This document shows, one piece after another, positions 3,318 through 42,974 of a stretch of 64,000 nucleotides of DNA. The stretch is from the NCBI GenBank assembly GCA_030390025.1, contig CM059425.1:43090001-43154000 (forward strand), written 5' to 3'. This DNA is from Squalus acanthias (Eukaryota). Each line of letters starts with the position of its first letter. Position 1 is the stretch's first letter. The translations under genes and the position numbers were made by a program. The notes beneath the pieces are model-generated. The model was not told the DNA's origin, searched no databases, and was given only the letters and a program-made list of their open reading frames with translations.

Positions 3318-3516
3318 ATGGAATTTTACCGCGCAGATGGAAGCCTTTCGGCCCAGCGTGCCTGTGCTGGCTTTGAAAGAGCTGTCCACGTCGTAGCAGC
3401 GACCTCTGTTGAAAAAAATCTAAACTCTCCTTTTGTTTTTTCAATGATGATCTTAATCATGATAAAAATGAGAAGTCGCACAACACCAGGTTATAGTCCA
3501 ACAGATTTATTTAATT

Positions 3517-3555
3517 TTACAAGCTTTCGGAGCTATTCGCTCCTTCCTCAGGTAA
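3517..3555 (-). ncRNA. Minimal type I hammerhead ribozyme motif (inverted copy)
   Basis: Exact reverse complement of 3607-3645. Confidence 0.8.
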
Positions 3556-3606
3556 GTTAGCAGTGAGAGAATCTCCCAGATTCTGGGAGATTCTCTCACT
3601 GCTAAC

Positions 3607-3645
3607 TTACCTGAGGAAGGAGCGAATAGCTCCGAAAGCTTGTAA
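3607..3645 (+). ncRNA. Minimal type I hammerhead ribozyme motif
   Basis: TTAC-CTGAGGA-A-GGAGC-gaata-GCTCC-GAA-AGCT-T-GTAA: helix I TTAC/GTAA, core CUGANGA, 5-bp helix II, GAAA, palindromic AGCT helix III. Confidence 0.8.
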
Positions 3646-4409
3646 AATTAAATAAATCTGTTGGACTATAACCTGGTGTTGTGCGACTTCTCATTTTTGT
3701 CCACCCCAGTCCAACGCCGGCATCTCCACATCTTAATCATGATAGGTTGCTCAATGTGCCTCCACAGAATGCATGTGACACTAAAGCATTAGGGGCACAT
3801 GTGAGATTTTATAAAAGTTGGCACTGTTGATGAATGACATTGAGGTTATGTTCCTAATATGAAAGAGCTCAATTTCAATATGTAAAATATTAAAAATGTA
3901 TCAGCTGAATCTGGTCAGTGATTTATATTTATTAAATCAGTATGCATGAAGTCACTGTTTTTTTTCATTGATTCAACTATTAGGTTTGGTGTGGGAATAA
4001 ATCACTGCTGTCCAAATGTTTACTGTGTAACTGCAGCGATCATTATATCTTTCATTCTGGGCACTGCTTGAAGGAAAAATAATCTGAGGAGGAGACCTCC
4101 CCTTGACAGTGAAACCATGATTTATAAGTCAGCAGCCTGCAATGCATTTATTTATTTTGGAACTTGGATACTGAACTTTTCTTTATTTTCGTGTAAACAT
4201 AAAAGTTGTAGTTATTCATCTGGGTGTCCAAAGGACATGTGAGACTACATGTTATTGATTTGCTATCAGTCCATTTGATTTGTCTTAAGACAAATCAATT
4301 CTTTTTTTGATTAATCTCCAAAATTCACGAAGCGAGCACTAAAGAGCCATCTGTAATTGTTCTCATTTTCCTAAGGGAGTTTGGAATGGGGATTGGTGCT
4401 GATTGATTT

Positions 4410-4605
4410 CCTCCTTCCCAGCTTTCTGTCCTTTTCTCCCCTCTTGTCCCAAAGACACTGACTTATGCCGGGTTTCACCGGCATCAGCGGCCTTTCAGTA
4501 CCTCACCCAAATGGCCATTCTTCATGTGTGAACCTGGACCATGAGTGCCAGCTGGCTATTTGACTATGTAGGTCATCACAGCTAAACCCGATCCTGTCTT
4601 TACTT
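4410..4605 (-). mobile_element. Family X SINE-like fragment
   Basis: cccaaatggccattcttcatgtgtgaacctggac...catcacagctaaacccgatcctgtc motif shared with other copies. Confidence 0.6.
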
Positions 4606-4655
4606 TAAAATTCATACTCATCACTTTCCAAACGGAGAGACTGGATAGTGAGCTC

Positions 4656-4676
4656 GAGAGAGAGAGAGAGAGAGAG
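4656..4676. repeat. (GA)n microsatellite
   Basis: About 10 GA units. Confidence 0.9.
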
Positions 4677-4784
4677 CTTGGCAGACATTTTCTCTGTCTG
4701 GTCTAGACTGATGCTAGTTCTAGCACCCCAATTGCTGCTTTGGCTGGAATCGTTCTGGGGATCAAATATTTTAATTTCTTCTTG

Positions 4785-5430
4785 AGATATGGACGATGTT
4801 GGCAAGAATGCATTTATTGCCCATCCCTGAAGAAGTGGTGGTGGACCATCTCCTTGAACCATTGCAGTTCTTGTGATGATGGTGTTCCACAATGGTATTA
4901 GGTAGCAAATTCCCGAATTTTGACATTGTGATGATGAAAGAAAGGCATGTTTAAGGATAGTATGTGACTTGGAGGGGAAGTTGGAGGTGATGGTGTTTCC
5001 ACGACTTTGTTGCTCTTGTCCTTCTTGGTGGTATAGGTCGCAGGGGAAGGAGATGCTGTTGAAATAAGTTTGGCAGCTGCTATAGTGCATTCTATAGATA
5101 TTACATACTACAGCCACAGTACGCCAGGGGTGGAGGGATGGATATTGAGTTCAGTGGCAGAGGCATTGATCAAGTGACCTGCTTTGTCCTGGATGGCATC
5201 AAGCTTCTTGAGTGTTGTTACGGCTGCACGCATAGAGTATACCATAACACTCCTGCCTTGAGCCTTGTAGATGGTGGAGAGGCAAAGAGGAGTCAGGAAG
5301 TGAGCCACACATCACCAAATACCAAGTGTCTGCCCTGGTCTTGTAGCTACGGTGTTGATATAGCCAGTCCAATTAAGCTTCTGGCCAATGTTAACCTGCA
5401 GGATGTTGAAGGTGGGGAACTCGGCAATTG
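4785..5430 (-). mobile_element. Degenerate CR1-group LINE 3' part (A-tailed family)
   Basis: Minus-strand TTLKKLDAIQDKAGHLI motif; reverse complement matches 29660-29890. Confidence 0.75.
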
Positions 5431-5536
5431 TGGTGCAGTGGACTCCTCCAACTTTCGAACCTACCCTGAGAGAGAGGGACATCTAGATTGGTCAGTAAAT
5501 CCACAGTGGATGTTTTGATCACTGACCTTCAGGCCA

Positions 5537-5933
5537 CACCTCGATTTCAAAATTCTCATCCTTGTTTTCAAATCCCTCCATGGCATCGCCCCTCCCTATC
5601 GCTGTAATCTCCTTCAGCCCCACAACCCCCCCGAGATATCTACGCTCCTCTAATTCTGCCCTCTTGAGTATCCCTGATTACCATTGGTGGCCGTGCCTTC
5701 TGTTGCCTAGGCCCTAAGCTCTGGAATTCTCTGCCTAAACCTCTCCGCCTCGTTACCTCTCTTTCCTCCTTAAGATGCTCCTTAAAACCTACCTCTTTGA
5801 CCAAGCTTTTGGTCACCTGCCCTAATTTCTCCTTATGTGGCTCGGTGTCAAATCTTTATCTTTTAATACTCCTGTGAAGCGCCTTGGGCCGTTTTACTAT
5901 GTTAAAGGTGCTATATAAATACAAGTTGTTGTT
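5537..5933 (+). mobile_element. L2-type LINE 3' end
   Basis: FKILILVFKSLHG and LWNSLP motifs; tail aaaggtgctatataaatacaagttgttgtt. Confidence 0.88.
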
Positions 5934-6924
5934 AACAAGCAGTATTTTGAGGTGATATACATTTGTTTGATTGGAAAGAATTGACAATTTGCTGACTGTT
6001 TTTCAAATTTAAAACTTTTAATTAATCAAATAGAATAGAATATCATCTTGGATTGCTGAGAATGCAGCAATCACTAACTGAATACTATAAATCAGGAAAT
6101 AGTAATACAGTAGTACTTCACATAATCTGTGGCCACTGGCACTTTCACTTAAAATGATTTTTGCTGAAAAACATTTGCTGTAAATGAGTTAAAATTACAT
6201 TTGGGGTAAGTTTAAATGTGAATAATTGGAAAATTATTTCACAACTAAAATTTCCCGATGAACAGAATCTTTTCTCAAAGCGTATGGATCAAGCAGGGTT
6301 CACAATAGAATGGATTGCGAATGATCTGCAGAAGGAATGTGCTTGGTAGGATTTCTTTATCCATGCCTTTGTATGTTCGTAAAAGAACGTTTATCTTGTA
6401 ATGTTTTTGCTATTCCCCACAGATTAACCTCATACGGAAATGCTGTTTCCCTCTTTTGTGGCAAGGCTTCTTGTAACACCCAGTGCACTAATCTTCAATT
6501 AAACTCACCTGCTAATTTTCCTTCCCTCCTCTTCGGAAAACGTTTCCTTCAATGGAAGCCCAAATATGAATTTTCATTCAGAATAGGATCTCAAAGTTCA
6601 AACTTTGATGTTGTAACATTATAGCTACCAGACCACTTAGCCTTGTGCTTTAACGTAACATTGCAGCAGCACAGTATACCCTCAGCCCTGGCTAAATCAT
6701 CTTTCATTATTTTTCTGGGCAGCAAGACGAAAGTAGAGCTTGTATTCATTCCAGTAGTTCTATGTTGCAGTTCTATTAGTTTTACACCAGTACTATTTTG
6801 GGAGTGGTACAAGCGGCAGCACTGAGGAATACGGCCTCATTCTCACCACTTTCAAATTGGGAAAAGACAGAGCTCTGTGAATTGGTGGCTAAACACACGC
6901 GCGGCCAGTGTAGAATATTTAGTC

Positions 6925-7290
6925 AATTTGTTCCTCCTTTCCATCTCCTGAATCTTGCTGGAGTATAGTTCCACATCACACCCGCAGCACCTCTAGTACT
7001 TTGCCCAAACAGCCATATTAAACCTTTGAGTCTAGAAATTGAATGTTGGCAGGTTATTTGACCAGGTGGCATTATGGATTAGCCCGATTCTGACTTCATC
7101 CAATGTCCACGTGCGCACATTTTGCAGCAGGGGTCATTGAAAAGCAATCAAGGCTGGGAACTCTGGCTGATTTATTATTTTCCCTAGCTCAGGCATGCTG
7201 ACATCACTTATGACATCTCTACTGCCACCCTGGCTAAGGTCAGTCAACTCAGCTGGGATCTTCTGGTATGCAAGCAGTGTCTCTACCCAC
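6925..7290 (-). mobile_element. Family X SINE-like copy
   Basis: Shared motifs cagcaggggtca, ctggctgat, ccctagc and tcagtcaactcagc. Confidence 0.6.
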
Positions 7291-7337
7291 TAATGTTAGA
7301 AAAGAGACAATTGCTCCTCTCCTTTTCAAGCATCAGT

Positions 7338-7470
7338 CAACAACAACAACAATAACTTGCATTTATATAGCGCCTTTAACATCCCAAGGCGCTTCACAGG
7401 AGCGTTATCAAACAAAATTTGACACTGAGCCACATAAGAAGGTATTGGGGCAGCTGACCAAAAGCTTGGT
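7338..7470 (-). mobile_element. L2-type LINE 3' tail
   Basis: (caa)n-cttgcatttatatagcgcc; reverse complement of about 5795-5933. Confidence 0.8.
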
Positions 7471-7959
7471 TCGAGTCATAAAATACTTTTTGTCTGGTTT
7501 TAAATTTAAATGTTAAAGTTTCACATCTGATACAAAACGTTGAGGTGATGCTGGTTTATCTGCATTTTGTGGCATTGTGTCACTGAAACCCCTCCACAGT
7601 GACAGAAAATGTACAATGAAAATGTATGAACTTCAAATTCCTCTGATCTTATAAATAACTAATGTAGTAGTGCAGATTTTAAACAGAATGGTTTTTGTTG
7701 TGTATCTTTTTATAATAGACATATTGATCATTTTGAAATGAGACAGCCTCCTGGTATAATGGAATAAGCAAAATAAAGGGTCAGATGTAACTCCTGTGAT
7801 GTGGTTTTTTACATTTGATGTGAGCAGGAGGGAAATTCATACAGGCAGCGGAAGGATTGAATCAGATAAGGATGTGGATTTTAAATGACAAAGAAATTAG
7901 TTTCCAGGGTCTTTTGAGTGGTTTTCTATTGAACCCTGTGGAGTCTCACTGAAAGTTTC

Positions 7960-8640
7960 TAGTCAATGTGAAGCTGTTATCAACAAAGGTAATCAAATAC
8001 TAGGATGTATCTCAAAGGCATTTGTCTCTAAATCAAAACAAGTTTTTCTAACCTTGTATAAATCAGTGATGAGACTGCTTTTGGAATATTGTATGCAATT
8101 TATGGCAGTCCATTTTCCAAAGGACATTGAAGGGTTTGAGCTGGTTCAGAGAAGAGTGAAGTGGTTTCCAAAATTTCGATGCCTAAGTTACAAAGAAAGA
8201 GTCACAGAACTGAACTTGCTTTGATTAACACAAAGATGTGGGGAGAAGGCGGAGATATGGGGGCAGTTTTCCCAATAGGCACTGGTAGCGGGAAGCCTTG
8301 CGGCACTTAGCGGAAAATGGCAGCCATGTTGACCGTTGTTTTCCGGTCACTGAAATTAATAGATGGAAAACCACGTGCAGTGTCCTCATGTTTTTCTGAT
8401 ATGCACTGGTGGTGGGCAAGGTTTTCTGCTGCCAGCCCAAATTCAGAAAACTGTCACACTGATCCTGGTCTTTAAAATACTGATGAAAATGTAGCATGTG
8501 TCAAGCGAGACTAAAGATCGGAAGAATTTTTTTCTGCAGGTTGGTAGATATGTGAAATAAACTTTCAGCAAAGACAGTCAGCATGGTGATTAACTGCTTC
8601 AAAATTAACCAGGATAAATATTTGGTGAGGAATGAAGGTT
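7960..8640 (+). mobile_element. Very old CR1 LINE fragment interrupted by a MITE
   Basis: LYKSVMRLLLEYCMQ-like motif; GDM/ILVFKIL is split by the 8259-8459 insert. Confidence 0.65.
8259..8459. mobile_element. Palindromic MITE nested in an old CR1
   Basis: GGGCAGTTTTC...GAAAACTGTC ends with internal dyad symmetry; removing it restores CR1 GDMILVFKIL. Confidence 0.65.
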
Positions 8641-9774
8641 GGAGGGCTAAGTATAGACTGAGGTGATCAGATGCTCTACAGGGAATGATGGTTCTTGTGC
8701 TGCTGGGGCTGGGAGGTATGTTCTGTGGAGGGTATCATGTCATGCTTAAATGCTGGAAATGTGGCAATGGATAGATATTCAACTGTTTTGCTTGACTACC
8801 TCTGGCAATCAGGAAGAATTTGTACACAACTTTCTTTCAGGAGGTGAAATAGGTGAGATAAAGTCCATAGATTGTACATGATCAATGGAAGCAATGGGTT
8901 GAATAGACTTTTCTCATTCAATGCTTTTTTTATTTTACAGAAAGGTAACGTGAAGTTCCTTGAATCCTGACATTTATGATTTAACAAATAGCTACTGCAT
9001 CAAAATTCTTTACTATTTTCTGTTAATGTAGTTTATGCTTCTGTTCTGGAATAATAGACCAACGTTGCTGTTTGCAGCCTACATTGTTGGACTAGAATTT
9101 CCTGCCTATTGACTGTGAATGGATTTTTTTTAGTCAAGTTGGATGAAAATAATGCTTTCTCAGTCGATAGATGTCTGTTACTACAATAACATTTTGCTTA
9201 GTGGGGCTCCCCAGGAGTTAGATTTTACTGTACTTCCAGCCTTTCCTGTCACGCCACATTTTCTTGTTTCTTTAAGAGCCTTCAATCACGGAATGGCTTG
9301 TTCTCATCTTCACAAGTCTACAGGGGAGATGACACCCTGCAGTTAATAGCTTCAAATTATTACCCTTTCTAAATACGTTGGTGTAATTTTTATGGAAGAT
9401 ATATGCAGATTTTTTTGCATGACTGGTGATGCGGTGAGATAATGCCCTTTCACAGGCTTGTAAAACAGATTAAATAGGACCTTCAGCAAGAATTTTGTTG
9501 TGATTTTTAGTTAGCAGGAATCTACTAACAGCTGTGTGCATTTCCTCTATTTCACACCCAATCTTTAGGCCAGTTGCTAATGTCCATCGTAGTGGAAAAT
9601 GTAAAGTGAGTTTACTTCACAGCAGGTAGGCAGTGGGAAAAACCTTGTGAAATGTAGAATAGGACTGAGCAAAACACTTCTCAACTTCTCATCAAAATGT
9701 GCCAGACAGCATTTTGCATGGAATCGTTACTTTTAGCGGCAAAACTTTGTTCCAGAGGAAAACAATAAGGGACC

Positions 9775-10460
9775 AACAGCAGCAACTTGCATTTACATAG
9801 TGCCTCTAATGGAGAAAAATGTCCCAAAGTGCACAAAGAGGTGTAATCAAGAAAATGGATGCCAAACCAAAGAAGGAGGTGTTAGGAAGGGTGTCCAAAA
9901 GGGGGAAGGGGGATAGCAGTAGAGGCAGCGGAATGGATGATCTCCACCTTAATGTTAAAGCAATTCATGAGCTCCTCACACTTGTCAGGGGAAAAGGGTT
10001 TATGAAGGCAGTTTGTAGTGGAGAAAAGAAGCTGGGTGTTATCTTTGCTTTCCAGGATGATTCTGTAGTAGTGGGTAGCTATGGCAGAGCAGGCCAGGTA
10101 GAGCTAAATGTGCTATGGATGAATACTAAGCCGAGGGAATGGCCTGGGTGGGAGACGGTGACAGTTTCTCTTGGGACAAGGATAATAATGGTGGAGGTAA
10201 GGGAGTGGTTTGGTTAATTGATGGTTGCAGGTATTGTGGTGATTGGAGGGCCAAAGGCTAGTCAGTTGTGACATTGAAATTGCAGTTATATGTAAAGAGG
10301 TTTTTCCAGGGGCGGGAAGGGGGTAGGAGTGTATTGGTGGTGAGGGATACAAGAAATTGACCGGATGGCCAAGTCAGTGATCAAGACCACGGGAGTAGAG
10401 AGGCCACAGGAAATGGCGAAGTTGAGGGGATGGCCATGAATATGGGTTAGAGAATTTATA
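9775..10460 (-). mobile_element. Degenerate L2-type LINE (3' tail joined to an internal fragment)
   Basis: aacttgcatttacatagtgcc tail followed by purine-rich sequence typical of antisense L2. Confidence 0.6.
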
Positions 10461-11009
10461 AAGATATCTTGCCCAAACGGCCATACAAAATGAGTGAGCC
10501 TAGAAAGTGAATGTTGACAGATTTGTAAAGGTAAGTCATTTCATGCAAATATATGGAAAATTAAAGTATTTAAGTTAACCAAAGTACATATGAAAAAGTC
10601 TTATGTACAAGGGCAATATAGAAAAGACATGCTTTACAGCTATCAATTTGATATTTGTCTTGGGTAAATGTGGCAGACTTATTAATCTGGTGTATCAGAA
10701 TACCTGCTAAAAACTGATTCTGAATTGTATGTGCTAAACTTTCAGCATAATAGAGGCTTCTTTAGTTGATATCAGAATAACTACAATAAGCAAACTTCAT
10801 TATATGGATTGCTGGGTACTATAGAAACAAAATGATTTGTAATTTACTAAAGATACGTCATTAACCATAGAGTAAATTCTTTGATTTTGTACTTCAAGGG
10901 AGTATGGATTGGAGATTTGGGACTACAGATTTGTTGCCCTAATTCCTTCCCATTTTGGATTGGGGATTTTACTCTTATATTGCTACTTTTTCATTTTTTT
11001 TGATTGGGA

Positions 11010-11400
11010 AGTGGAGCTTTGTTTTGCAAATATTCTCCCATCTTCTCTTCTGGAATCAGTGACTCATGCTGGGCAGGGTTCTTCAGATACTGAACACCCA
11101 AGTGGCCATTCTTTATGTCAGAGCCGAGATAGTGAGTGTGAGCATGCTATTGATCTTGAAGGTCAGTCAGTGTCATTGTCGAGTTCAGCATCCACACATG
11201 GGTATTTTCTAGCTGGAGTCACTAGCTACCGATCAGGAACAAGAACCTTGCCCGATTTTCTCCTCCCTAGCCTGGGGTCAGTGAGGCTAATTGTAGAGCC
11301 TCAACTGCCTCTGTGGCTCAGATCAACTAACTCTGCCCAGACCAAGAATTGAACCTAGGTCTATTTCGTCTGCATTTCTTTAACAACTGAGGAGCTCCTC
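11010..11400 (-). mobile_element. Family X SINE-like copy
   Basis: Shared motifs cccaagtggccattc, gatcaggaac, ccctagcc and gctcagatcaactaactc. Confidence 0.6.
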
Positions 11401-12637
11401 ATATTGGTAATTACAACAAAATATGTAGTTGACGTAATGCTTCTTCAACTATTTACATAATATTAGTCATTTTATTGGGTTTTTAGAATATATTTGTAAC
11501 TTAAATTAATACCCTGTAGGCATTGTGACCTTTGCTAAGGGAAGATTTGGTCAAGGGTATGCTACTCATACATCTACTATTGTGGATTATCCTTGTTTAC
11601 TGTTGCCTCTGATGCCCTGTGCATGGTATAAAATATTCTCAGCTGTACTAGTGATCCCTCTGTGGGCCATAATTGTCATGGGGCACGATATGAGAGCCTT
11701 AAGTTGGTCAGCTTCCATGTGAGGCATTAGTTTCGGTAGCAGCTTTGTACTGTGCAGGATTTAATCTCCTTCGAAACCATACACCAGGATACACAAGGGG
11801 CTGACTCTTGTGTGTTTTTGCACTGATAGCTGCAATATCTCTGCACTATAGGAAAGTAATGACAGCGCAGGGCTTTGGGACCCTGAAAGCTGAACATCCA
11901 TGAAACAAGTTTAAAGGGGATTGTCTTGCTAAAAGACAAAATAAATTAACTAACAGTAAAGAAGATGCATTTGCCTTTGAGTCATCTCCTTAGTGGGAAC
12001 ATTTTCACACTTCAGAAGGTAGCTGCGAACTCAGGAACTGTGACTGATGGGTTGCAGATTCACAGGCATTGCCACAACAGTCTAGGTCAGAACCGTTTAA
12101 AATTTGGTCACTCTGCCCTGGCACACCAGGAAACCCAAGTGTATTCTCAAAACAAGTTCTTTGTTAATGGATCTGGTTAATTATTCATTGCTGGGGGCAA
12201 GGGTTATGCTATAGCAATTTATCAGTACACATTAAGTTCGCGATGCTGCAAGGCTTATTTTTCCTCTGATGAGATTTTGCAACAAAAGATCCCCTTTGCA
12301 ACATATTAATGTTTCAGTAATACAGCTCACTAAACCAGACTATCTCCTGAGCATTAAAAACATAGGCACATTCAACTCTTTGATGTACGGCTAATTATGA
12401 GTGTAAGAAGATGGGTAGTTATCAGGTGAGCCACCAGCCTCGCAGTTTGTTTTTGATAATTGTTTTCATGCTGTTCTTTTGCATATGGAAATGCACACGC
12501 TTTATGAATCAATTATGTTCTACGAGCCTAACCTACTGTTTTGAAGAGACTTAATACCGTCAGAAAAGTGACTGCTGAGCTAATAAGGATGAGTCGCAAT
12601 TAGTCCAAGTTGGCTAATGATTTTCTCCTCTTTTCAG

Positions 12638-13153
12638 GACCCAGGATTTTCAGCTTTTATTTTTGACAAGCTTCAAGTGCCTGACTCTTCAAAACGAGGT
12701 CGAAATGAAGGTGAGAGCCGATGTGAGATTTGTGCAACACACCTAAATCAGCTGCGAAAGGAAGCCATTCAGATGGTCCATACACTCGACCAAGCATCCA
12801 GTCAGGAAATACCTGAGCTACCGCACAGTTCCATTGCAGTGAGCGGCGTTTCATCAAGAATTGCTTCCCAAAATATGGTCACCCTTTCATCACAAAGAGA
12901 CTGGCCTCTGGTCACAGGACAAACGAGCAGACAGCCTGGAAAATCAGGAAATGTAATCTCTGGTACAGAGAGAAGGAAAGGACTTGGCTGGCCTCAGGGT
13001 ACAGGCAGCCTTTCAAAGTCCAGTGTTCAAGTAACTGTTGGTTCCAGCGGTCTTAGCAATGCTCTGAACTCAGTCACCATTCAGGCACAACAGTACCTTG
13101 AGGGTATGTGGAGTATCTCTAGAGTCAACAACTTTCTTCCTCATGCCTATTTG
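12638..13153 (+). CDS. KIF26A: KIF26A-like kinesin, internal coding exon (172 codons, phase 0-0)
   Basis: Acceptor ttttctcctcttttcAG (AG 12636-37) and donor TTG|GTGAGT at 13154. Translates DPGFSAFIFDKLQVP...CEICATHLNQLRKEAIQMV...VTIQAQQYLEGMWSISRVNNFLPHAYL, recognised as the KIF26 N-terminal region. The EGMWSISRVN motif resembles KIF26A more than KIF26B (from memory). Confidence 0.9.
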
Positions 13154-13329
13154 GTGAGTATTTTGTTGTTTTATTATGACGAAAATAATGCCTGAAGATC
13201 TAAAACTTGTTAATGTGAGCATTTAATATTTCCTCAACAATTCAGAAAAACAAAGAATACTTGTTTGATACTTTTCAATTTGCTACAGTAAACAGATTAC
13301 AAAACCAGAAATGTATTGTACTTACCTCT

Positions 13330-14170
13330 CTCGACCCTTCAACTACCTCAGTCTGCTTGTCCGACGTCTAGTTTTGGTGGAGCAGCAGTTCCTCCAATTA
13401 AACATTGGGATGACCAAAGCCATTGCCTTCGGCGCCCACCATAAATTCTATCCTTCTCTCCGGCCATTGTCTCGGGTTGAACCCGACTGTTCAAAACCTT
13501 GGCGTTCAACTTGACCTGAGCTGAGCTTCCATCCCCATGTCCTTTCCATCACAAAGACCACCTACTTCCACCTCCGTAACATTGCCTGTCTTCATGTCTT
13601 CGCACCTGCTTCAGCCCATCTGCTACTGAAACTCTCATTCATGCTTTTGTTACCTCCAGACCTGACTATTCCAATGCTGACCTCCCATTTTCCACTCTCC
13701 ATTAATTTGACCTCATGCAAGACTCTGCTGCCGATATTTTAACCTGTTCACCCATCACCTCCATGTTTGCTGACCTATATTGGCTTCTGGTCTATCAACA
13801 CTTCAAATTTAAAATTCTCATCCTCCTGTTCAAATCCGTCTATGGCCTTGCCCCTCCCTATCTCTGTAACCCCTAACAGCCCTACAACCCTCCGAGAACT
13901 CTGCGTTCCTCCAATTCTGGGCTTTTACGCATCTGCTACTTCCTTTGCCCCACAATTGGCGGCCGTGCCTTCAGCCATCTAGGCCATAAGCTCTAAAATA
14001 CCTCTCCACCTCTCTCTCCTCCTTTTAAGACCCTCCTTAAAACCCACCTCTTTGACCAAATTTTTAGTCATCTCTCCTAATATCTCCTTCTTTGGCTCGG
14101 TGTCAATTTTTATCTGATTACACTCCTGTGAAGCGCCTTGGGACATTTTCCTGTGTTAAAGGTGTTGTTG
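13330..14170 (+). mobile_element. L2-type LINE 3' part
   Basis: LQLNIGMTKAI and LIHAFVTSRPDYSN motifs; similar to 42112-42952. Confidence 0.9.
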
Positions 14171-14299
14171 TGGGTCACTCATATTTTTGACAGGTAAGTG
14201 GTAACTCATCCCTTATGTAATAGTTGAAAAAGTGTGTTAAAGAACCTACTACAAAACCGGCATTGGAATTTTTTTATCACAATTAGAGGCAGTTCAAGT

Positions 14300-14690
14300 T
14301 TTTTTCCCCCTCCAGTTCTCTCCCATTACACCTCCTGTCCTGAAGGTGGCAGCTAATACTGGGGTATGATTTCTCAGCTCTTTGGTATTTTGTCCAAATG
14401 GCTATTCATGTCCGAACCTGGACAATGAGGGTCAGCAGGTTATTCAACTGTAAGGACATCATTGTTGAACCTTACAACCATACACATGAACTTTCCAGCA
14501 GGGGTTACTTGATAGCAATTAGGAGCTTGAACCCTGGCTGATTATACCACCTTTATCCAGATGCACTGACAATTATAACATGTTACCGACAGCCTGACTG
14601 AGATCAGTTAACTCAGCACAGTGGCAATTGCACCTGGGACCTTCCTCATCTGTATGCTCACACCATTTCCCACAGACCCTATAGAGAAGC
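14300..14690 (-). mobile_element. Family X SINE-like copy
   Basis: Same motif order as the other copies. Confidence 0.6.
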
Positions 14691-15264
14691 TTGTTCAGAT
14701 AATTTAGGGGTTTGCTGGAAAGGAGAAATCATAGGTGCAGTGGGGTAACTTGATGTTTGGTCCACTACCAGATTGTGATGACTTGTGTCTGTACTGTTGC
14801 CAGCGTGAAACCACAAGTTAGGTCTAGCTTACAGTGGCATTAGTTTGGAACAATTAGGCCAAATATACTGAGATTTAGATGTTTGAGTTTGATTCATCCA
14901 GGGCCCAGCTCAGTTTCTGAAATACAGTATAACCATGGCATGAATCCACCGTGGAAAATATCCACACGAGAGATGATAGAACATATCAGTCTGTGAGCAA
15001 CAGGAGTATACCAGATCACCAGATGATGTTGGGAAATGGATAAGTCAGATAGCATGTGTAGGGCTCTTTTGCAATTGTAGTGTCATTAGTAGATTGTGTT
15101 ATATCATTAATGCAATAAAGACATTTTGGATTCCCACAGCTCCTACCATCTGCTATCATAAGGGAAGCTGCATGTATAATTTTTTAATCTCTTATTTTTT
15201 TTCCTGCATGTACATTTTGATGAAGGTCTTCTTGAATATTGCAGAGCAGTGTATCCCATATACT

Positions 15265-15836
15265 AAATGCCTCGATTTTAAAATTCTCATCCCTGTGTTC
15301 AAGTCCCTCCATGACCTTGCTCCTCTGTATTTCTGTAAACTCTGCCAGCCCTACAACCAATGGTCCCTCTAAGCTGCACGTGGCCATGTAACAATCTGAA
15401 AGGTCCCAGGCCGGCCGCTCACCAGCTTTTCCATTGTAAATACCGCGCATGCGCAGAAATTTAAATGGACTGCACATTAAAAGAAACAGGCCGCGCAGAA
15501 CAAAGCACGGCTGACAGGGAACATTGCCTACAACCCTCCGAGGACGCTGCGTTCCACCAACTCTGGCCTCTTGTCCATCCCCCACTTCCTTCGCCCCACC
15601 ATTAGCTGTCTAGGCCCAAAGCGCTGGAATTCCCTCCCTAAAACTCTCCGCCTCTCTCTCTCCTCCTTTAAGACCCTCCTTAAAACCTACCTCTTTGACC
15701 AAGCTTTTGGTCACCTGTCCTAATGCCTTCTTCTTTGGCTCGGTATCAATTTTTTGTCTGATTACGCTCTTGTGAAGCAGCTTGGGATGTTTTATTATAT
15801 TAAAGGTGTTATATAAATGCAAGTTGTTGTTGTTGT
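15265..15836 (+). mobile_element. L2-type LINE 3' end interrupted by a hAT MITE
   Basis: Similar to 5537-5933; (gtt)n tail. Confidence 0.88.
15358..15526. mobile_element. hAT-type MITE (169 bp)
   Basis: 8-bp TSD CCTACAAC (15350-15357, 15527-15534); TIRs CAATGGTCCCTCTAAGCTG and CAATGTTCCCTGTCAGCCG (15/19). Confidence 0.85.
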
Positions 15837-15978
15837 AATACATTTCTATTTATTAGAGCTCTTTTGGATAATATGAATAATAGCACAGATCTTTTCACTG
15901 TATGTCAGTCAGGGTGATCTGTGAGGTAATCGAAGAGCTCTATAAATCAAGTCTTTAAATTGATTTCTTGAGTCTTAT

Positions 15979-16430
15979 AACAACAACAACAACAACAACT
16001 TATATTTATATAGCACCTTTAACATAATAAAACATCCCAAGGCGCTGCACAGGAGTATTTTAAGACAAAAAATTTGACACCGAGCCGCAAGGATAAATTA
16101 GGGCAGGTGACCAAAAGCTTGGTCAAAGAGGTAGGTTTTAAGGAGTGTCTTAAAGGAGGAAAGCGAGGTAGAGTGGCGGAGAGGTTTAGGCAGGGAATTC
16201 CAGAGCTTAGGGCCTAGGCAGCAGAAGGCACGGCCACCAATGGTTGAGCGATTATAATCAGGGATGCTCAAGGGGGCAGAATTAGAGAGCGCAGATATCC
16301 CGGGGGGTTGTGGGGCTGAAGGAGATTACAGCGATAGGGAGGGAGAGGCCATGGAGGGATTTGAAAACAAGGATGAGAATTTTGAAATCGAGGCGCTGCT
16401 TAACCGGGAGCCAATGTAGGTCAGCGAGCA
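15979..16430 (-). mobile_element. L2-type LINE 3' end (relatively young)
   Basis: (aac)n tail; close reverse complement of 5537-5933; possible TSD CTTAT (15974-78, 16431-35). Confidence 0.9.
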
Positions 16431-18799
16431 CTTATTTAAGTAGCATTTATTTCATTTGAAAAATAGTAAGTGAATAGTATGGCTGGCATTTTAGAATTTT
16501 CAAAGCAGCTCCCACTTTGCAATGATCAGGACCGAATGTTTGAACATTAAAAAAATCCATGATGAGAATAAGCCATTAACCCATCCAGCCCACTCCCTGC
16601 AGAGTTGATGTATGATCATTTTAACAGGGTCTTCTTCTTCTCCATTCCCCTCCCAACCATTGAGGCTGTATTGGCCAAGGAATAGTGAAAATATATTTTA
16701 AAATTTCAAACAAAAGTCATTGGGTTTATCAGTTTAAAACACTATTGTGCTTCAAGTTCAGCTCAGTGTATAAGCTGAACTCAAGAAGAAATTTGCCCAG
16801 TCACCCAGTGAGTTCATTGAACACTCCCATCCCACTACCACTGAAGCTACGTTTGAATTTCTTATTAATTTGTGCTGTCTGTTGCTTAAAATGATCCCTA
16901 CAAAGAAAATACCTTGTATACCTTAACCTTTCTTCCTGCTTTCAGCTAGTTTTGAATTTACTAATCAATAATTGCAATGTTTCCTAAGCTTTAATACTTA
17001 TGGAGGCTACCACATGTGTCCTTGTGTGATGCCACAATTTAAAGAGTATAACACATGACTGATAAAACCAGACTTGTGAGTTGTTTAACTATGGCATTGC
17101 ACCATATCCTGATGGTGTTCTATTTATACAGTGAGTAACTGGTTATAGTCTTATTTAGTTTTCAGGCATTCGTTTAAATAAAGAACATTTAAAGAGATTG
17201 AAAGACCTATCGAATTCATGAATAAAGAAAATGTAAAGAAATGAACAACCTGCCTTGTATTCATATACATCACTGAGATAGAATATGGGAGCTACATGTC
17301 ATTATGCAGTTCATTCAAATTTGTGGCATTGGGGATTATAGGTGATGAATTTGAGTATGTCTTGTCAAGGGATTGATGATTCATATTTGATAGATTGTAG
17401 TATGTTTTTTATGACATTGTCAAATGTTATTTCAGCCTTTCATTGTTGGTGCCCTTGTTTAAATTTGATTTTTTTTGCTTGTGACAGCAGCAATGAGAAA
17501 TGTGGTCATGTAGTGATTGTCGAAAATAGTCTCAGGAGAAAGTGGTATCCCGCACATGTAATTACACTGTTCCCGAGGCCAAACCGGTTGTATAACCTTT
17601 GATTATAAACACACACAAGAATAATTCAAGACATCTGAGATTTAAAAAGTGGAAAATTCAAATATTTTGTGCAGCAAATGGGGCCTACTTTCCGTTCAAA
17701 TACTATACTGCAGGCTGCCACCAATTGAAAATTACTGAGACACTTTGGCTTGTTCCTTCTGTGAATTTTTCATAAATTCAATTTAATGTAAATTAAACCC
17801 GCATTTGTGTAATGAGGTTTGTGTTTTAAAGTATTTACCAATTGAAGGAATCATTACTTAAAATTATTTTTGGAACTTTAAAGTCATCTGGGTTGCTTCA
17901 GTATTGCATTTGTCGAATATAATTTTTAAAAATTTGTTCTGTTGTATTGATTTGAATCCACTGCTGTACCAGTAATTGATATTTAATTCGGATTTAGTTC
18001 TATGAGTCAATGTGAGAGCATTGGTTATATAAAGAGAATTTAATTCAGGGCTGAGGTAATATAAGATGAGCAGACATCTCTAGATGATGTAAGTGTTAGC
18101 CAATGAGAATGCGTAAAAATAGTCAGCACAGGGTGGCATAGAGTCATGACTCATGACAAAATCTGCCAGATCTACAGAATATTTCGAATCATTTTTCCAG
18201 TAGAATATTCACATATCATCATCCAACAATAACACTATTTACAGAACAATTTTAAGAAGCGTAAATATAAACTGGTTATATGTACAATTAAACATCAAGT
18301 AGCCTGTTGGCATACATAGTTGTAGACTATAGCCCAGAATTTCCTGGAAAGTTTCAGCATAACTACAGAGTGAGAGTGGCATTGCACCAATTTTTAACCG
18401 AAGAAATTTGTGCCGAACTGATTTACGCGGAAACACCGATACACGTGAATTACCTCAATCATTTGAGGCACTTCCAAGATACATGTGCCGAAACCCTCTG
18501 GTGCTCATTTACATAGCCCTGCCCCTATGTAAAAGACCAGCTCATGTGAGTTTCCTGGATTTACGCTGGTGTAGATCTACACCCAAAAATGTAGGCGCAG
18601 CATGGCCCGAAGTCACCTGAAATGGGCGTAGCTGAGATTTCTGTTTTTTTTTTAACTGGGACCAGCACTAAACTTAAACAAAGTGCTATCAATCTCAGTA
18701 CACTCAATGTTTCGGTTCCCCACCCCCTCCCCCACATGTTGAGAAGGACTAAGCAGCTGGAATGGCCTTTGCAATTGGCATACCCTTGTTCTGCATATT

Positions 18800-18894
18800 T
18801 CTTCACTTCACCTGACGAAGGAGCAGCCGCTCCGAAAGCTTGTGATTTCAAATAAAACTGTTGGACTATAACCTGGTGTCGTGCGACTTCTCAC
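18800..18894 (+). mobile_element. Penelope-like pLTR mini-insertion with TSD
   Basis: Closely similar to 3607-3693; flanked by the 11-bp direct repeat TTCTGCATATT (18789-18799, 18895-18905). Confidence 0.85.
18808..18845 (+). ncRNA. Minimal type I hammerhead ribozyme motif
   Basis: TCAC-CTGACGA-A-GGAGC-agcc-GCTCC-GAA-AGCT-T-GTGA; helix I TCAC/GTGA covaries with TTAC/GTAA of the 3.6-kb copy. Confidence 0.8.
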
Positions 18895-19019
18895 TTCTGC
18901 ATATTAATGGCAGAGGAAGAGGAGCAGCGGAGGCAAGGGGCTCTGAGAGTGACGCACCACAGCAGTACATAGTGATAGACTGAAATCACTAGCATTGCAA
19001 CACAATAGCCGTTACTGAA

Positions 19020-22150: not shown

Positions 22151-22320
22151 GCACAGACAACAATGACAGAGAGTGGAAAAGAAGGTTTGTCTCAAGAAAC
22201 CATCATCCCACAGAACAGCAGCAGTCAAGCCTGGGTAGCAGGCCCACCAGCCTCCCAGAATTCATTACTACCTGGCAGGATTTCTTCCGGCACTTCAGCT
22301 GCAGCTTCTTTCTTCATCAG
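22151..22320 (+). CDS. KIF26A: KIF26A-like internal coding exon (170 nt, phase 0-2)
   Basis: Acceptor ttttttgtttttAG ending 22150 and donor CAG|GTATTG at 22321. Translates AQTTMTESGKEGLSQE...SSGTSAAASFFI(R); in frame with both neighbouring exons. Confidence 0.9.
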
Positions 22321-33250: not shown

Positions 33251-36231
33251 ACACTGAAATAAACGGAAAATTATTTTGTTTCCTGCAATTGTCTCTTTTG
33301 TTCTTAAGTCTTTCTGTGTCACTCTCTCTGCTTTTCAAGTTCTTTTCAACTTTTTTTTTCTCTCTGTATAAGTTTCACACATATTTTCTGGCTCTCTATT
33401 TACCTTTTCCTCCTCCAAGTCTCATCTTCAGTGTGTCTCCTCTCTCATCTATATCACTTTCAGTCTCACTGGGTGGCTCACACATCCCTTTAGTGATGGT
33501 CATAGTTTCTATCTCTTGCCTTTTTTAAAAGCCTAGGTATGCAGCAAGGTAGTAGTCAGTATGTAAAAGGTTGGAGGTGAGTACTGGGAACAAGCAAAAG
33601 GTACTGTCCGGGAACCGGGGGAACATGTGTGGATGAGGGAGAAAATGGCAGTCTGGGGATTCAGGCTGGGTGAAAATGGGAGGAGGATCTGCAGCCTGGA
33701 GGGGTGGGGCCAGGGGTTGGTTTGTGGGACACAGTGGATGGAGGGGGCCAGAGCTTTTGAAGGAGTTGGGTCCTGGGAGTACTTCTAGGGAATGGGATCT
33801 GTCAGTCTTGCTGGAAATTGAGATTTGGCATGCTCATGGCTGTAGTGTAGCCTTATTTTCGCCCTTCAAAATCATGCATTGCAAAATGTTACGACCAGTG
33901 CATGTGCAATGTGAGGCTCTGCCAGTGGTATGGAGCCTCACAAAATTGGCCTTATATATGTACTGTTTTACATACATACAAGAGCGACATTTGCCATGTG
34001 GGGTCTCAGGCAAAAGTTCGGTTGGAAAGGCATGTTTGCAATAGATAATATAAAAATAGTTGACGAAATGATCAGGGATTACCATTGCGTAGGTGCCCTT
34101 TCATTGGATCCGCGCGGGTCCCTGATTGGCTCTAGTCGCCGTTCAATTGCACAGGCTGCAGGGTCCTAGTGCCGCTCCTGCATACATAATATCTACAATA
34201 TATTAAATTTGCACTCTTATTTGAGCATCACCACTGTGACGCACAGCCACTTGTGCACATTTCTACCACCAGGCGGCACTTCATAAGCTCCAGATACTGC
34301 AGATTCCCATAACTATGCCTACAATATCCCAAATGCGCTCCGAGGGAAATTTGCTTTCCTGGTCAAAGCCACAGGAAATCCATAGAGTTACTATGAAAAT
34401 CCAAAGGAAACAAACCAGAAGATCCATATAGTTACTATGAAAATGTACAGAAACACAACTGCTACAGTGAAGACCATGTTGGCTCAAAGAAATGTAGTTA
34501 TAACCATGGTAATTAAAGCTAGGATTTTGCTACATTGATAAAATCATCATGTGAAAGATGTGACAGGTCTGTTTCTCACAGAAGGGTCAGGTCAGACATT
34601 GCTACCGGGTGTATTGTTAGGACATCTGTTTATTTGTTGTCAGTATTGATGGGTAATTAAGGAAACAATAAGTGGAACTGGAGACCAGTAACAATCATGG
34701 TGGCATTTCCTAGCATTTCCTTTATAGTGCTAACTTGATACAATTAGTTTTGAGTTTGGGATTGGTTGCAAAGTTTTATTGTTAATATAATAGCAGGTGT
34801 TGTTAGAATACTGTGGTTGCTAGGATTTATAAAAGTAACTAACCATAGGTTACTGCGATAAGAATGATTTGAACAGAGGCAAATGCTAAATTAAGTGCTA
34901 AATCCGTTTCAATGAATTAATAGGGCTGTACCAGCAAAGCTATGTAAGGCATCGTTTATAAGAAACCATATTGAAAGGCTGCAAACTGTGCTTCTTCAGA
35001 TGGCATTTTCAAATTTGAATCTGAAAATATATCAACACGTACCTTTTGATGATTCAGTTTTTAGATGGAACTAATAGGGGCATAGTGGTCAAAAATCAGC
35101 TTCTTCAATTGAACATTATACTATGTAGGAAAATTTGTAATCTACTTTAAAATGATCAGACTTCAGCACATTGCCATGTGTTCATGAAATCTATGAGATT
35201 CCTATCTTTTGACAAATGCAATGCTAATGAGAAAACAGCAATCAATGTGTTATAGTACCCCTGTGGTCTATTCTTCATGGCAGTTGGAATCACATATTGC
35301 TAAAAATCATCTCATCTATCTCCTTCTCTTTAATCCTACGACCTCAGTGTTGTGCAGCAGTGCTAAATTGTGAAGTTGTTCAGTGCCTGGAGGAACAGGT
35401 TAGGGACCCTCCCTTGACACTTGATCTTTGAGTGTTTCTAGATGTGCCGTATATTACTATCCTCTGCCGTGTGGCTTGCTGTGAAGAAAGAACTCTCCAG
35501 AGCACCTTAAAAGACAGCTCCTATTAAGCATAAAACAGGTTAAGTGAAATGCAGCTACAGATAGAAATCAGAAAAAAGAACAAAGTTGCACAGTGCAGAT
35601 GTAATTATAAGAAGGGGAAAAGCATAAGACTTAAAAATAATGCAGAAATGCTAGGTTCCTTGTTAGTGGACTTAAAAGGATAAGACTGTTATCCTTTGGG
35701 GATTGCTATTCAATCTGGTCTATAGCCATATCCTGCAGTTTGACAGTTTTTTGGTGTAAAGTAAGAAAAGACAAACAAAAAGCCAATGAAAGGCAAATCT
35801 CAGTGTGAATCAAGATTTTGACAACTGTTTCATTTCAAGGATTATGTCAAGGATGCTATTCAAAATTTAAACCATTAGGTTTTACTATTTCACATTTTCA
35901 ATGTCTTCAATACATGAATTCTGCAGTAACTTGAAAAGAACAATAAAGACTTATGAAATGTATTTTTCTGTTTTTAGAATTCTTTTAATCAAAATTTGAA
36001 ATCTGTACTTCTGAATTGTGTTCTTTTAATAATATGTGCTAATCAAGTTAACAGAAGGAAACTGACAGTTGATTCAGGCTAGTGCAGGACTCCATTGAAA
36101 TTATTTTTTTAATTAACTGGGGAAAATGGTCTTCAATTCTTAGATAAAATAACAGGAACTTTATATGCAATTAAATTGTAAGAATAATTTCTTGTAGCAC
36201 AGCAATTGTGATCAGTGGCTTCAGAATAGTG

Positions 36232-36310
36232 CCCATGAAGGAGCAGCCGCTCCGAAAGCTTGTGATTTCAAATAAAGCTGTTGGACTATAACCTGGTGTT
36301 GTGCGACTTC
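36232..36310 (+). mobile_element. Penelope-like pLTR mini-insertion, 5'-truncated inside the hammerhead core
   Basis: ATGAAGGAGCAGCCGCTCCGAAAGCTTGTGATTTCAAATAAA...GTGCGACTTC, nearly identical to 18817-18890. Direct repeat TCAGAATAGTG at 36221-36231 and 36311-36321. Confidence 0.85.
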
Positions 36311-38734
36311 TCAGAATAGTGTAATCATCTTGTCTTAATTGAAGAACTGGCCACGGTGATAAATACTGATATAATAGCAATTGGTCCATGGCTAATAGTA
36401 ATTGCTGGACTAAAGACATGCTTTCTCAAACAACTAAGTTAAAGCACCGATAAATGCTGTTGTAGATTTTGTTATGGGTAATTCAGCAAGAAGCAAATGT
36501 CTGAACTATTGACACATTTTGAAAGCACTTAAGAGTAACTGCATCTTCTAAATGATTTTGTAAATCTCCGTTAAAAGTAGCCATTTTTAAAGCTTGCATA
36601 GAAATGTCTAAATTTTAGGTTTCCATTAATTAGATGAGTTTAATTTGGTGGTGTAATAATCTACTTACTATGTTACCAATGAAGTTGGTAATTAATTAAC
36701 AATTATGTCTTTCACTCCACTTTTATATTCCTAAATTATAATTGTCAATTGAATGCTGTTTTATCTTGCTTAATTTGTAAAATAAATTATATAAAAATAT
36801 GAAAAGTATGTAATGACATCACACCACAAGTGTTAAAAGGTTTGGAAGGGTATGACTGTAATTTACAAGTTTGGTTGAATTCTTGTTGTAAAACAAAGTT
36901 CATGTCATAAAATAATGGAAAATATAATCAATACACTGCCTTTGGGATGCGAGGGTATCTGCATATCTAGAAAGTAAAAGGCATATAGTTTACCTAAAAG
37001 ATATTCTTCATGACTTGCATTGCAGATGTCCTGTGCAAAGTTTGCACAGTACCAGATGGGTCAGATAAGGAATAAGATGATTACAAGCCTCTAGTTTAAG
37101 GCATTGTATCCACTGAGGAAATGGCAGAAACAGCCAGGATGCAGTGCCAAAGAGTCTGTGAAGCATTAGATCCTGGTATGAAATCTACAAACAAAGAACT
37201 CAGAAAAACTTCTAGTTCAAGTTTTCCCATTAGGATTTCAGAACTGTCTTTTGATGGCTATTAATATTATTGGGAATCGGGTTGAACAAACACTTATCAA
37301 ATATGAATAGGCCCAACAAAACACGATTGCTGCCCCTGCACAGAAAGGCAAGGCTAGAGACCTGAGGCCTAAGTGCTAGGATTATGTATTGGTTCGGTAA
37401 GGTGAAAACATCATCCTTTGCTTGCTTATGAGCTTTATCATTACAGTGTTGACTCCTGATGGAAGTACTGACCTTAATCTTGAAGTAGGAAATGTTGTAA
37501 GGCTTGCTCTCAATTCCTAATGACGTCCCATTCTGATTCTTGATGCTGGAAAGCATTCTGCTGGCAGGGAAATTTGGCCTTCTGGAATGCCCTAGGAGGG
37601 TACCAATTGGGACTTCAGCACGGTCACAATCAGGCCCAGATAACTGAAGGTACAAGCAAAGTGAAAGAACAGTTTCCTGGGTCTTTCTCAAGAGTGTAGT
37701 CGCATAAGTCAGTCATGTGACTTGTATACAGCTCTTCGAGACTCAGGGTGCAGCTCTTACTGAATGTAAGACACTGAAAGCTGAGGCTATATCAAAAGGC
37801 ACCAGTATATACTGGTAGCACATGCAAATTAAATAGAACCACAGATACATTCTGTCATTCTTCCTATCTGCTATGTAGTTTATATGGAGAGAATCCTAAG
37901 AGTGTTACAGCGCAGAAATAGCTCATGCTGCCCATCATGTCTGTGCTGGTGTTTTTCTCCACGAGATATTTAGGCCTAAAGTTTTTGCTTGCATGCCAGT
38001 AGTGAGGAACCTCACCCAGTGCACATTGGAACGTGGCAGGTGTGCTGCAAGCATGATTCTCAGCTGCCGCACATACTTGGAAAATTTAGGTCCTAGTCTA
38101 ACCCCACTCTCCTGCTTGCTCCCCCATATCCTTTAATATTCCTCTTGATCAAGGAATATCTAATTTTGTTTGAAAACAATTTGCAGACTCTGCCTCAACA
38201 AAGGTTAGTGGCAGAGAATTCCATCTTGCTGACCAATGGAAACAAACCATCACTTCATATACAGTGAAAGTGAATTCATTTAATAGACGGAGTATATCAC
38301 AAATTTGATCGGAGGCTCATATTTAGCATACCCATAGGTAGGACATTAGTAGCACAGCAAAATGCTATATTCAGTATATTGGAAGCTGAGGAGGCCGTTT
38401 AGCGTCCAAAAAAAAAAGGGTGCTGTGCAGTCCAAGTTCTAGGCTATTATTTCTAGCTGTGTGCTCCTATCTCAGTGAAGAAGACGAATGGTGGATGAAA
38501 ACTATCTGAAGAAATTATTTGGCTAGATGTTTGATAACTTATGTTTAATGAATGATAAATGAAAAACTGATCTATTTGATTGCTCAGCTATTCTTGTTTA
38601 CCTGTTCCTCACTGGTAGTTGCTAACTGAATTAAACTGCTTTTGATTTGTTCACATTTAGTCAGTCAGATTTTTGATTGGTAGCTTAACAGGTAAGCCCT
38701 CATTTCAGTCACTTAACCAGTTTCTGTCCTACGA

Positions 38735-41913: not shown

Positions 41914-42111
41914 TAAAGTCTGGGAAATGGACGTTAAAGGAACTGACATTCCTTGAATTTCAAAGACAAGGTGAGTAAGTATTCCTTTGTTCATTGAAAA
42001 TGCATAGCTTTTGTTTCCTGAAGAAAGTTGTATTTTCTAATCATCCTCCCTCTTTTTTCTGTCTTGGGATAAAAGGTGTGGAAAGTCAAGAATATAGCTC
42101 ACACAAATGTA

Positions 42112-42952
42112 AGGCTCCAATTAAACATTGGGAAGACCAAAGCCATTGTCTTTGGCCTCCACCATAAGCTCCGTTCCCTCGCTACTGATTCTATCCCCCT
42201 CCCTGGCCATTGTCTTAGGCTGAATCAGATTATTTGCAACCTTGGTGTCCTATTTGATCCTGAGCTGAACTTTCAAGTTCATATCCTCGACATCACAAAG
42301 ACCACCTACTTCTACCTCCATAAAATCGCCTGTCTCCGCTGCTGCCTCAGCTTATCTGCTGCTAAAATCTCCATCCATGCTTTCGTTACCTCCAGACTTG
42401 ATTATTCCAATGCTCTGTTGGCCAGCCTCCCATCTTCCACCTACCATAAACTTGAGCTCATCCATAACTCTGCTGCCTGTATCCTAACTCACACCAAGTC
42501 CCATTCACCCATCACCCCTGTGCTCACTGACCTACATTGGCTCCCGGTCCACCAATGCCTTGATTTTAAAATTTCATCCTCATGTTCAAATCCTTCCATG
42601 GCCTCGCTTCTCCCAATCTCTGTAATGTCTTCCAGCCCTACAACCATCAAAGAACTCTACGTTTCTCCAACTCTGGCCTCTTGTGCATCCCCCACTCCCT
42701 TCATTGGTGGTCCTACCTTCAGTCTTCAAGACACTAAGCTCTAGAATTTCCTCCCTAAAACTCTCCACCTCTATATCTCTCTGTCCGCCTTTAAGACCCT
42801 TCTTAAAACCTACCTCTTTAACCAAGCTTTTGGTCATCCATCCTAATTTCTCCTTCTTTGGATTGGTGTCAGTTTTGTCTCATTACGCTCCTGTGAAGCA
42901 TCCTGTGATGTTTTCCTATGTTAAAAGCGTTATATAAATGCAAATTGTTGTT
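42112..42952 (+). mobile_element. L2-type LINE 3' part
   Basis: ORF 42076-42744 has LQLNIGKTKAIVFG, IHAFVTSRLDYSNALL and HSPITPVLTDLHWLPV; (gtt)n tail. Confidence 0.92.
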
Positions 42953-42974
42953 GGTTGTGCAAGGCATATTTTAT

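Follow-up and report, generated by a model that had tools for sequence, protein, structure and literature searches.

Two hammerhead-like ribozyme motifs, at positions 3607-3645 (copy 1) and 18808-18845 (copy 2), lie in introns of a KIF26 gene within a 64,000-nucleotide stretch of the genome of the shark Squalus acanthias (contig CM059425.1, positions 43,090,001 to 43,154,000 of the forward strand), which is referred to here as the window. We consider, with a probability of roughly 90%, that both motifs are 5'-truncated tail fragments, flanked by target-site duplications, of a young and very abundant Penelope-like element (PLE) that bears the hammerhead, that selection acting on the mobile element likely maintains the motif, and that the two copies are likely inert where they lie. 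The phenomenon is of a known kind, namely PLE minimal hammerheads on truncated insertions of a young shark Neptune-like element, and the two motifs matter little singly, as typical debris of a known retroelement. Their family, on the other hand, is young, comprises some 75,000 copies and includes intact tandem parents, and is thus well suited for examining the in vivo role of PLE hammerheads, which has been called unclear by Craig et al. (2021, PMC8557442; this and the other papers are cited here for part of their content).

Insertions in the window and their parent element

Copy 1 reads TTAC-CTGAGGA-A-GGAGC-GAATA-GCTCC-GAA-AGCT-T-GTAA and copy 2 reads TCAC-CTGACGA-A-GGAGC-AGCC-GCTCC-GAA-AGCT-T-GTGA, and both contain the core CUGANGA ... 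GAAA ... UH in the type I order. The two sequences and their differences, at N7, in the helix II loop and in one helix I pair, are as described in an earlier reading of the window made from its letters only (hereafter the sequence-only reading), and hammerhead position 17 is located at 3641 and 18841, the cut positions which that reading had predicted. The core pattern was matched three times in the window vs none in 100 shuffles, the third match being a complete hammerhead on the minus strand (core 3551-3525). The sequence-only reading had overlooked this third hammerhead, the inverted repeat that contains it, a fourth copy without a core, and the direct target-site duplications (15, 11 and 11 bp) that flank all three insertions.

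Insertion 1 is bounded on the plus strand by a 15-bp duplication at 3450-3464, the first three nucleotides of which are common with the end of the element tail, and by its identical counterpart at 3730-3744. Its sense arm (3580-3732, plus strand) is the final ~150 nt of a PLE pseudo-long terminal repeat (pLTR), including a ~40-nt tail, and contains copy 1 (plus strand, predicted cut after 3641); it is 97-98% identical to both pLTRs of the intact element at locus L189, and its tail stops just before the ATG of the parent. The fold-back arm (3461-3580, minus strand) carries the complete antisense hammerhead, and together the two arms form a 120-nt inverted repeat of 99% identity (3461-3580/3582-3701), which at 3461-3701 in an intron would give a long double-stranded RNA in the pre-mRNA. 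Insertion 2 (18789-18905, plus strand) is a tailless pLTR end of ~95 bp (18800-18894) between 11-bp duplications at 18789-18799 and 18895-18905, in which copy 2, a minimal type I hammerhead on the plus strand with a predicted cut after 18841, occurs solo. Insertion 3 (36221-36321, plus strand), with 11-bp duplications at 36221-36231 and 36311-36321, includes the fourth copy (36237-36313), which has lost the CUGA core and the helix I 5' strand. Insertions 2 and 3 belong to a second subfamily, and end at the shorter of the two 3' points described below. The window copies are thus solo or inverted, and head-to-tail tandem monomers are absent at these loci.

Near-identical relatives of the two copies are numerous, with 1,148 and 873 candidates, respectively, and the 40 scored in each search were 98-100% identical. 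In the 3.71-Gb genome a strict hammerhead pattern was matched 42,982 times, vs none for the reversed pattern, and a relaxed one 74,530 times, vs 55 for the reversed control. This corresponds to 1.3 pattern matches per 64 kb, a density from which the window does not stand out. Copies of greater length run upstream into an open reading frame (ORF) on the same strand, and lead to intact parents. The element at L189 has an intact ORF of 892 aa between two repeats that each contain a hammerhead, 3,026 nt apart; at L190, two ORFs of the 892-aa type accompany three hammerheads in tandem at a spacing of 3,031 nt; further intact parents were found at L191-L193. At L188-L190 both pLTRs contain the hammerhead in the sense of the ORF. 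The parent is a unit of ~3.03 kb, with the hammerhead ~240 nt past the stop codon and, in partial tandems, again ~90 nt ahead of the start codon.

The 892-aa protein matched the reverse transcriptase (RT) domain PF00078, and its translation carries DKG, YIDD, a C-x4-C-x2-C linker ahead of the endonuclease (EN), and a C-terminal YIG; the Pfam GIY-YIG domain (PF01541) gave no match on this query itself but is carried by many of the 120 homologues listed. The closest of these are shark proteins (up to 90%), followed by turtle proteins at 42-45%. By the criteria of PMC8557442, the protein sequence identifies the parent as an EN-containing (EN+) PLE with a linker of the Neptune/Nematis type. Its insertions show the hallmarks of EN+ PLEs, i.e. 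partial tandems with pLTRs, inverted 5'-truncated copies and an optional tail of 30-40 bp, and stop at one of two fixed 3' points ~40 nt apart. Of 170 tail-bearing ends, 112 showed target-site duplications; 88 of these measured 11-13 bp, with a peak at 12 bp (52/112), and this sharp peak suggests a fixed stagger between two nicks. The targets of the sampled tail-bearing ends are AT-rich, and are not microsatellites. The sequence-only reading's proposal of a PLE-borne minimal type I hammerhead family in this genome is accordingly borne out by the intact parents, the hammerheads in both pLTRs and the covariation described in the next section.

It is conceivable in principle, albeit very improbable, that the short copies are non-autonomous units, similar to retrozymes or miniature inverted-repeat transposable elements (MITEs), which spread independently. 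They are indeed short, high in copy number, hammerhead-bearing, often palindromic and flanked by duplications. However, their 5' ends are spread continuously from ~30 nt to >1.4 kb, with no fixed unit, no tandem monomers occur at the window loci, and all copies have the 3' ends of the autonomous element.

Several further observations concern the activity and by-products of the family. The pLTRs of the intact elements with an 892-aa ORF (L189:3580-6730 and L190:1388-8101) are >99.5% identical, and the genome holds 356 matches to the start of the PLE ORF; together these suggest that activity is recent or ongoing. The element is covered by contigs from four runs presumed to be RNA, which cannot reveal its ends, strand or level and are not used as evidence; for the KIF26 stretch, no RNA source was listed. 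Fold-backs are common in the family, with many opposite-strand pairs in both genome scans, and the genome may contain thousands of fold-back substrates for editing or small RNAs. At L200 (about 1470-1500), ~20 nt from the ORF start, which lies beyond the tail, are found inside a fold-back junction, pointing to template jumping on a longer RNA.

Conservation of the fold

Helix I pair 3 was scored in 163 parsed main-family copies, of which 81 have C-G, 66 U-A, 6 U-G and 10 another combination, the U-G class being the expected intermediate between C-G and U-A. The compensated helix I change that distinguishes the two window copies amounts to a single difference, inherited from their respective source subfamilies, and hence records selection on the mobile element rather than at the KIF26 locus; the earlier claim that covariation marks selection on the fold thus holds, across the subfamilies and a second family, for the mobile element but not for this locus. 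In a set of 87 copies reached via ORF searches, and therefore independent of the core, each column of the catalytic core is variant in two copies at most, whereas variation is unrestricted at N7, in loop II and in the upstream spacer; four of five recurrent helix changes are G-U-compatible.

The A between positions 9 and 10.1 is present in all 163 main-family copies and in all 11 parsed copies of the second family, with G10.1-C11.1 kept, and in place of a helix III there is a palindrome, AGCU in the main family and ACGU in the second. The extra A and the palindromic helix III which the sequence-only reading had pointed out are thus present throughout, but they are already published hallmarks of PLE minimal hammerhead ribozymes (PMC4209133). 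Similarly, the CUU triplet which it had called atypical does contain U17, but U17 is the family norm (64,022 of 74,530 relaxed matches, and 11 of 11 in the second family), and falls within the NUH rule for cleavage sites (PMC11014351).

The second family shares no flanking sequence with the first. Its helix I is GUU/AAC and its helix II GGGUC/GACCC, while the core, the extra A, G10.1-C11.1 and U17 are retained. When both families were aligned (36 haplotypes), 97.5% of the cells were paired, vs at most 49% in slid controls, all three helices covaried, and 7 of 11 pairs had changed on both sides. The check proposed by the sequence-only reading, i.e. collection of copies across the genome and analysis of family-wide covariation, gave the relaxed matches counted above and covarying helices, with few independent events. 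The second-family loci (L159-L168, L175, L182, L184, about 1497-1600) look older, and none of the copies is in the window; we infer that this family, too, belongs to a PLE.

Some results weigh against the assignment or weaken its support. An Rfam scan of the window hammerheads, the other check that had been proposed, found no hammerhead family at E<=10, and matched only microRNA models, on the 120-bp hairpin and below gathering scores; the assignment is consequently based on the motif, its context and covariation rather than on a curated model. The 163-copy set was partly selected through the core, and the rows of alignment A1 were parsed with a core-demanding pattern. In 20 of the 87 copies, the fifth recurrent helix change disrupts the outermost helix I pair (C-A). 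Downstream of the ribozyme the sequence varies as little as in the core, so that the conservation seen inside the main family cannot be ascribed specifically to catalysis. The count of pairs with a change on both sides was not above that of shuffles (360 of 500), and the covariation between the families is one evolutionary contrast however many rows are aligned, with few independent events. There was no PLE ORF within 1.5 kb of 10 second-family copies. Finally, the Neptune placement of the parent rests on the linker motif, which Nematis also has (PMC8557442).

Another explanation would be that the motif is a non-catalytic RNA signal (for protein binding, folding or RT start) which resembles a hammerhead, or a decayed passenger ribozyme. 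U17 is said to be the slowest H17, although a literature search found no paper supporting this and none giving cleavage rates at CUU sites. Helix I is only 3-4 bp long, and the modelled dimers are no stabler than two monomers (-18.5 vs 2 x -9.7 and -21.7 vs 2 x -11.3 kcal/mol). In addition, eight of nine Xenopus retrozyme dimers remained uncleaved (bioRxiv 10.64898/2026.07.22.740005), and core mutants left in vitro insertion of the anole PLE unimpaired (PMC11167929). Nevertheless, the hammerhead of that anole element does cleave, depending on C3 and G8 and with the protein present (PMC11167929), and two families without common flanks have kept the catalytic nucleotides, G10.1-C11.1 and the palindrome while exchanging their stems. 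We therefore regard a non-catalytic signal as unlikely, and retain a hammerhead ribozyme that is kept by the PLE.

Possible cleavage in the host transcript and in element RNA

The host gene was delimited by exons on the plus strand. Within the window, KIF26 coding exons were located at 12638-13153, between copies 1 and 2 (tblastn 91% to aa 119-303 of protein P0001, with AG/GT boundaries), at 22151-22320, and at 48210-48393, immediately ahead of the motor domain; an upstream exon lies 67.6 kb before the window (C1:43022112-43022360, plus strand). Copy 1 is thus within a KIF26 intron of ~80 kb and copy 2 within the following one, both in sense orientation, as the sequence-only reading had stated for KIF26A. 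The label of the paralogue is split: the two best protein matches of a 62-aa exon are shark proteins labelled KIF26B (98% and 95%), whereas among the other 118 matches listed all KIF26-named ones are labelled KIF26A, and vertebrate proteins with that label match the exon at 70-79%. The sense orientation is uninformative, because copy 1 is present on both strands and 1.3 matches are expected per 64 kb anywhere. The window also contains LINE-like (long interspersed nuclear element-like) 3' fragments and RT-like open frames at 5539-5933, 13392-14164, 15270-16431, 42073-42954 and 51827-52941, with RT-like frames of 223 aa at 42073 and 346 aa at 51827.

As isolated 38-39-mers, both copies are predicted to adopt the outline of a hammerhead. 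When their surroundings are included, the 120-bp hairpin that would bury copy 1 is predicted to be favoured by 65.7 kcal/mol over any fold that keeps a hammerhead, with hammerhead pair probabilities of 0.0. Copy 2 tells in the other direction, since in context it is predicted to keep the outline of a monomer hammerhead (helix II 0.98-1.0, helix I 0.6-0.7), and occasional cleavage through a dimer formed in trans might therefore occur. Its neighbours on the same strand are 15.2 kb away (buried) and 17.4 kb away (core-less). A single minimal hammerhead showed no detectable cleavage, while dimers cleaved slightly, in PMC4209133. Since copy 1 would be buried, a lone minimal hammerhead was not cleaved in that work, and copy 2 is without a near partner, cutting of the KIF26 pre-mRNA is unlikely according to these models.

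It follows that the two copies are extremely improbable as co-opted intronic ribozymes which cut or shape the KIF26 pre-mRNA, a role proposed for conserved amniote intronic hammerheads, even though both are intact, intronic and sense and copy 2 is predicted to fold locally. Besides the predicted burial of copy 1 and the distance of copy 2 from its same-strand partners, the identity of 98-100% to many dispersed copies marks them as recent insertions, their density equals the genome average, and there is no helix III. Domesticated hammerheads are old, conserved single copies with a canonical helix III, whereas here there are many near-identical copies that have none.

In the element itself, the profile of insertion 5' ends may be taken to reflect which RNAs served as templates, on the premise that cut RNAs, when copied, give insertions that start at G1.1. 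The 87 distinct ORF-start copies, whose contexts were taken from the first 100 listed of the 356 ORF-start matches and from earlier loci, comprise 38 that start downstream of the upstream cut site, 2 that start at it and 47 that run through, so that 47 of the 49 near-full-length copies reaching the site continue past it. Cleavage by the upstream hammerhead is thereby rejected as the definer of the full-length 5' end. In R2 elements, by comparison, ribozyme cleavage does define the 5' end of insertions. We read the profile as showing that uncut RNA is the usual template, as for the anole element in vitro (PMC11167929); this is a partial reading, with at most a small cut fraction. Four near-full-length copies (L369, L376, L387, L395) apparently start at the helix II 3' strand, 13 nt upstream of the cut site; either pausing of the RT at the hairpin or misalignment due to loop differences would explain these starts.

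The short copies provide a weak hint of that cut fraction. Among 1,418 arms starting within a 14-position interval around the cut site, 146 (10.3%) start exactly at G1.1, vs 4.6-5.1% when microhomology preference was absent or weak in the simulations (and a lower null when it was strong). The next base accounts for 136 (9.6%), vs 6.8-8.3% simulated with no or weak preference, and a purine-matched control position 8 nt downstream accounts for 68 (4.8%), near its simulated 3.5-5.1%. Clean starts number 294 at G1.1 vs 67 and 90 four bases to each side, an apparent 4-5-fold pile-up that fell to about twofold under one common filter and the simulated null. This excess, which involves <1% of all copies, weakly hints at in vivo cleavage of a small fraction of element RNAs. 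The inspected loci give little sign of Harbinger insertions at the cleavage triplet as a cause of the excess: a detached 5' half was found within 1.5 kb at only 1 of 30 loci and there was no recurring upstream sequence, although larger insertions may contribute.

In addition to insertion from uncut PLE RNA, it is thus possible, though doubtful, that the ribozyme cuts a small share of element RNAs in the germ line, some of which are reverse-transcribed into insertions starting at the cut; both the excess at G1.1 and the next base, with the control near the null, and the two ORF-start copies that begin at the cut site point that way. Other positions, however, stray equally from the null: position 15.2 has 1 of 94 arms vs ~6 expected (4 of 98 arms were dropped as indel variants, and both arms of a fold-back were counted). 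The null is therefore overdispersed, and a binomial p-value overstates the case. Furthermore, of 30 loci inspected with G1.1 starts, 19 show a fold-back junction, 9 a direct junction and 2 a small insertion (one locus having been reclassified by eye); TGAA precedes the site in 16 of the 100 G1.1 starts listed, as expected if templates were switched at the helix I complement; position -1 of junctions is purine-rich (91/112); and no RNA-seq reads end at the cut site of the anole element in the data given in PMC11167929. Whether the twofold excess amounts to genomic evidence for germ-line cleavage by a vertebrate PLE minimal hammerhead with a CUU site is accordingly a tentative matter, which we would rather doubt than assert. 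If true, cleavage would hit only ~1% of templates, and would not set the 5' end of the element.

From PLE biology, the following course of events may be proposed. The element protein would nick AT-rich DNA, and reverse transcription would be primed inside the element RNA at two fixed points; early fall-off or template switching of the RT would then leave stubs and hairpins such as those in the window. The ribozyme has no proper helix III, and cutting would require two copies to dimerize via the AGCU palindrome, presumably in tandem transcripts and perhaps with the assistance of protein; the RNAs copied back were mostly uncut.

Comparison with known systems

The literature searched, covered in part, contained no paper that names this shark family; a description could exist in Lunse et al. 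(2017), which is reportedly the main survey of PLE hammerhead variants, in figures, or in Repbase or Dfam. The closest relatives of the ribozyme are found among PLEs of other animals: an extra nucleotide and a palindrome are general features of metazoan PLE minimal hammerheads, which occur in the fish PLEs Xena, Poseidon and Neptune (Cervera and De la Pena 2014, PMC4209133). The shark family resembles these in its type I order without helix III, the nucleotide between 9 and 10.1, G10.1-C11.1, the palindromic 15.2-16.2, the short helix I, the mostly solo copies, opposite-strand pairs 100-700 bp apart, and several covarying families per genome. It differs in its helix II of 5 bp and in the high homogeneity of its copies, and its 74,530 matches exceed the ~4,000 of coelacanth and ~9,000 of Xenopus, which were counted with different descriptors; the covered parts of the text and supplement tables of PMC4209133 name no shark.

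With the Neptune EN+ PLEs of PMC8557442 the parent shares a single ORF with RT followed by a C-terminal GIY-YIG, the CX2-5CxxC linker, partial tandems, an inverted 5'-truncated copy, a tail of 30-40 bp at one end and a hammerhead in the pLTR, but the shark duplications are clear (~12 bp), and in our sample the targets are AT-rich rather than microsatellites. It is also similar to Poseidon PAc of Anolis carolinensis (Frangieh et al. 2024, PMC11167929), in which two internal RT starts define the tail, targets are AT-rich and uncut RNA is the main template. In PAc, however, the hammerhead includes the beginning of the ORF, and reverse transcription starts 111-118 nt into the ORF, whereas in the shark element, which probably belongs to a different clade, the cut site precedes the ATG by 91 nt and the tail extends up to the ATG. 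Finally, non-LTR retrozymes (bioRxiv 10.64898/2026.07.22.740005), which are present in the sole chondrichthyan sampled, have likewise a PLE-derived type I hammerhead; retrozymes are head-to-tail tandem monomers, whereas the shark window copies are dispersed truncation products.

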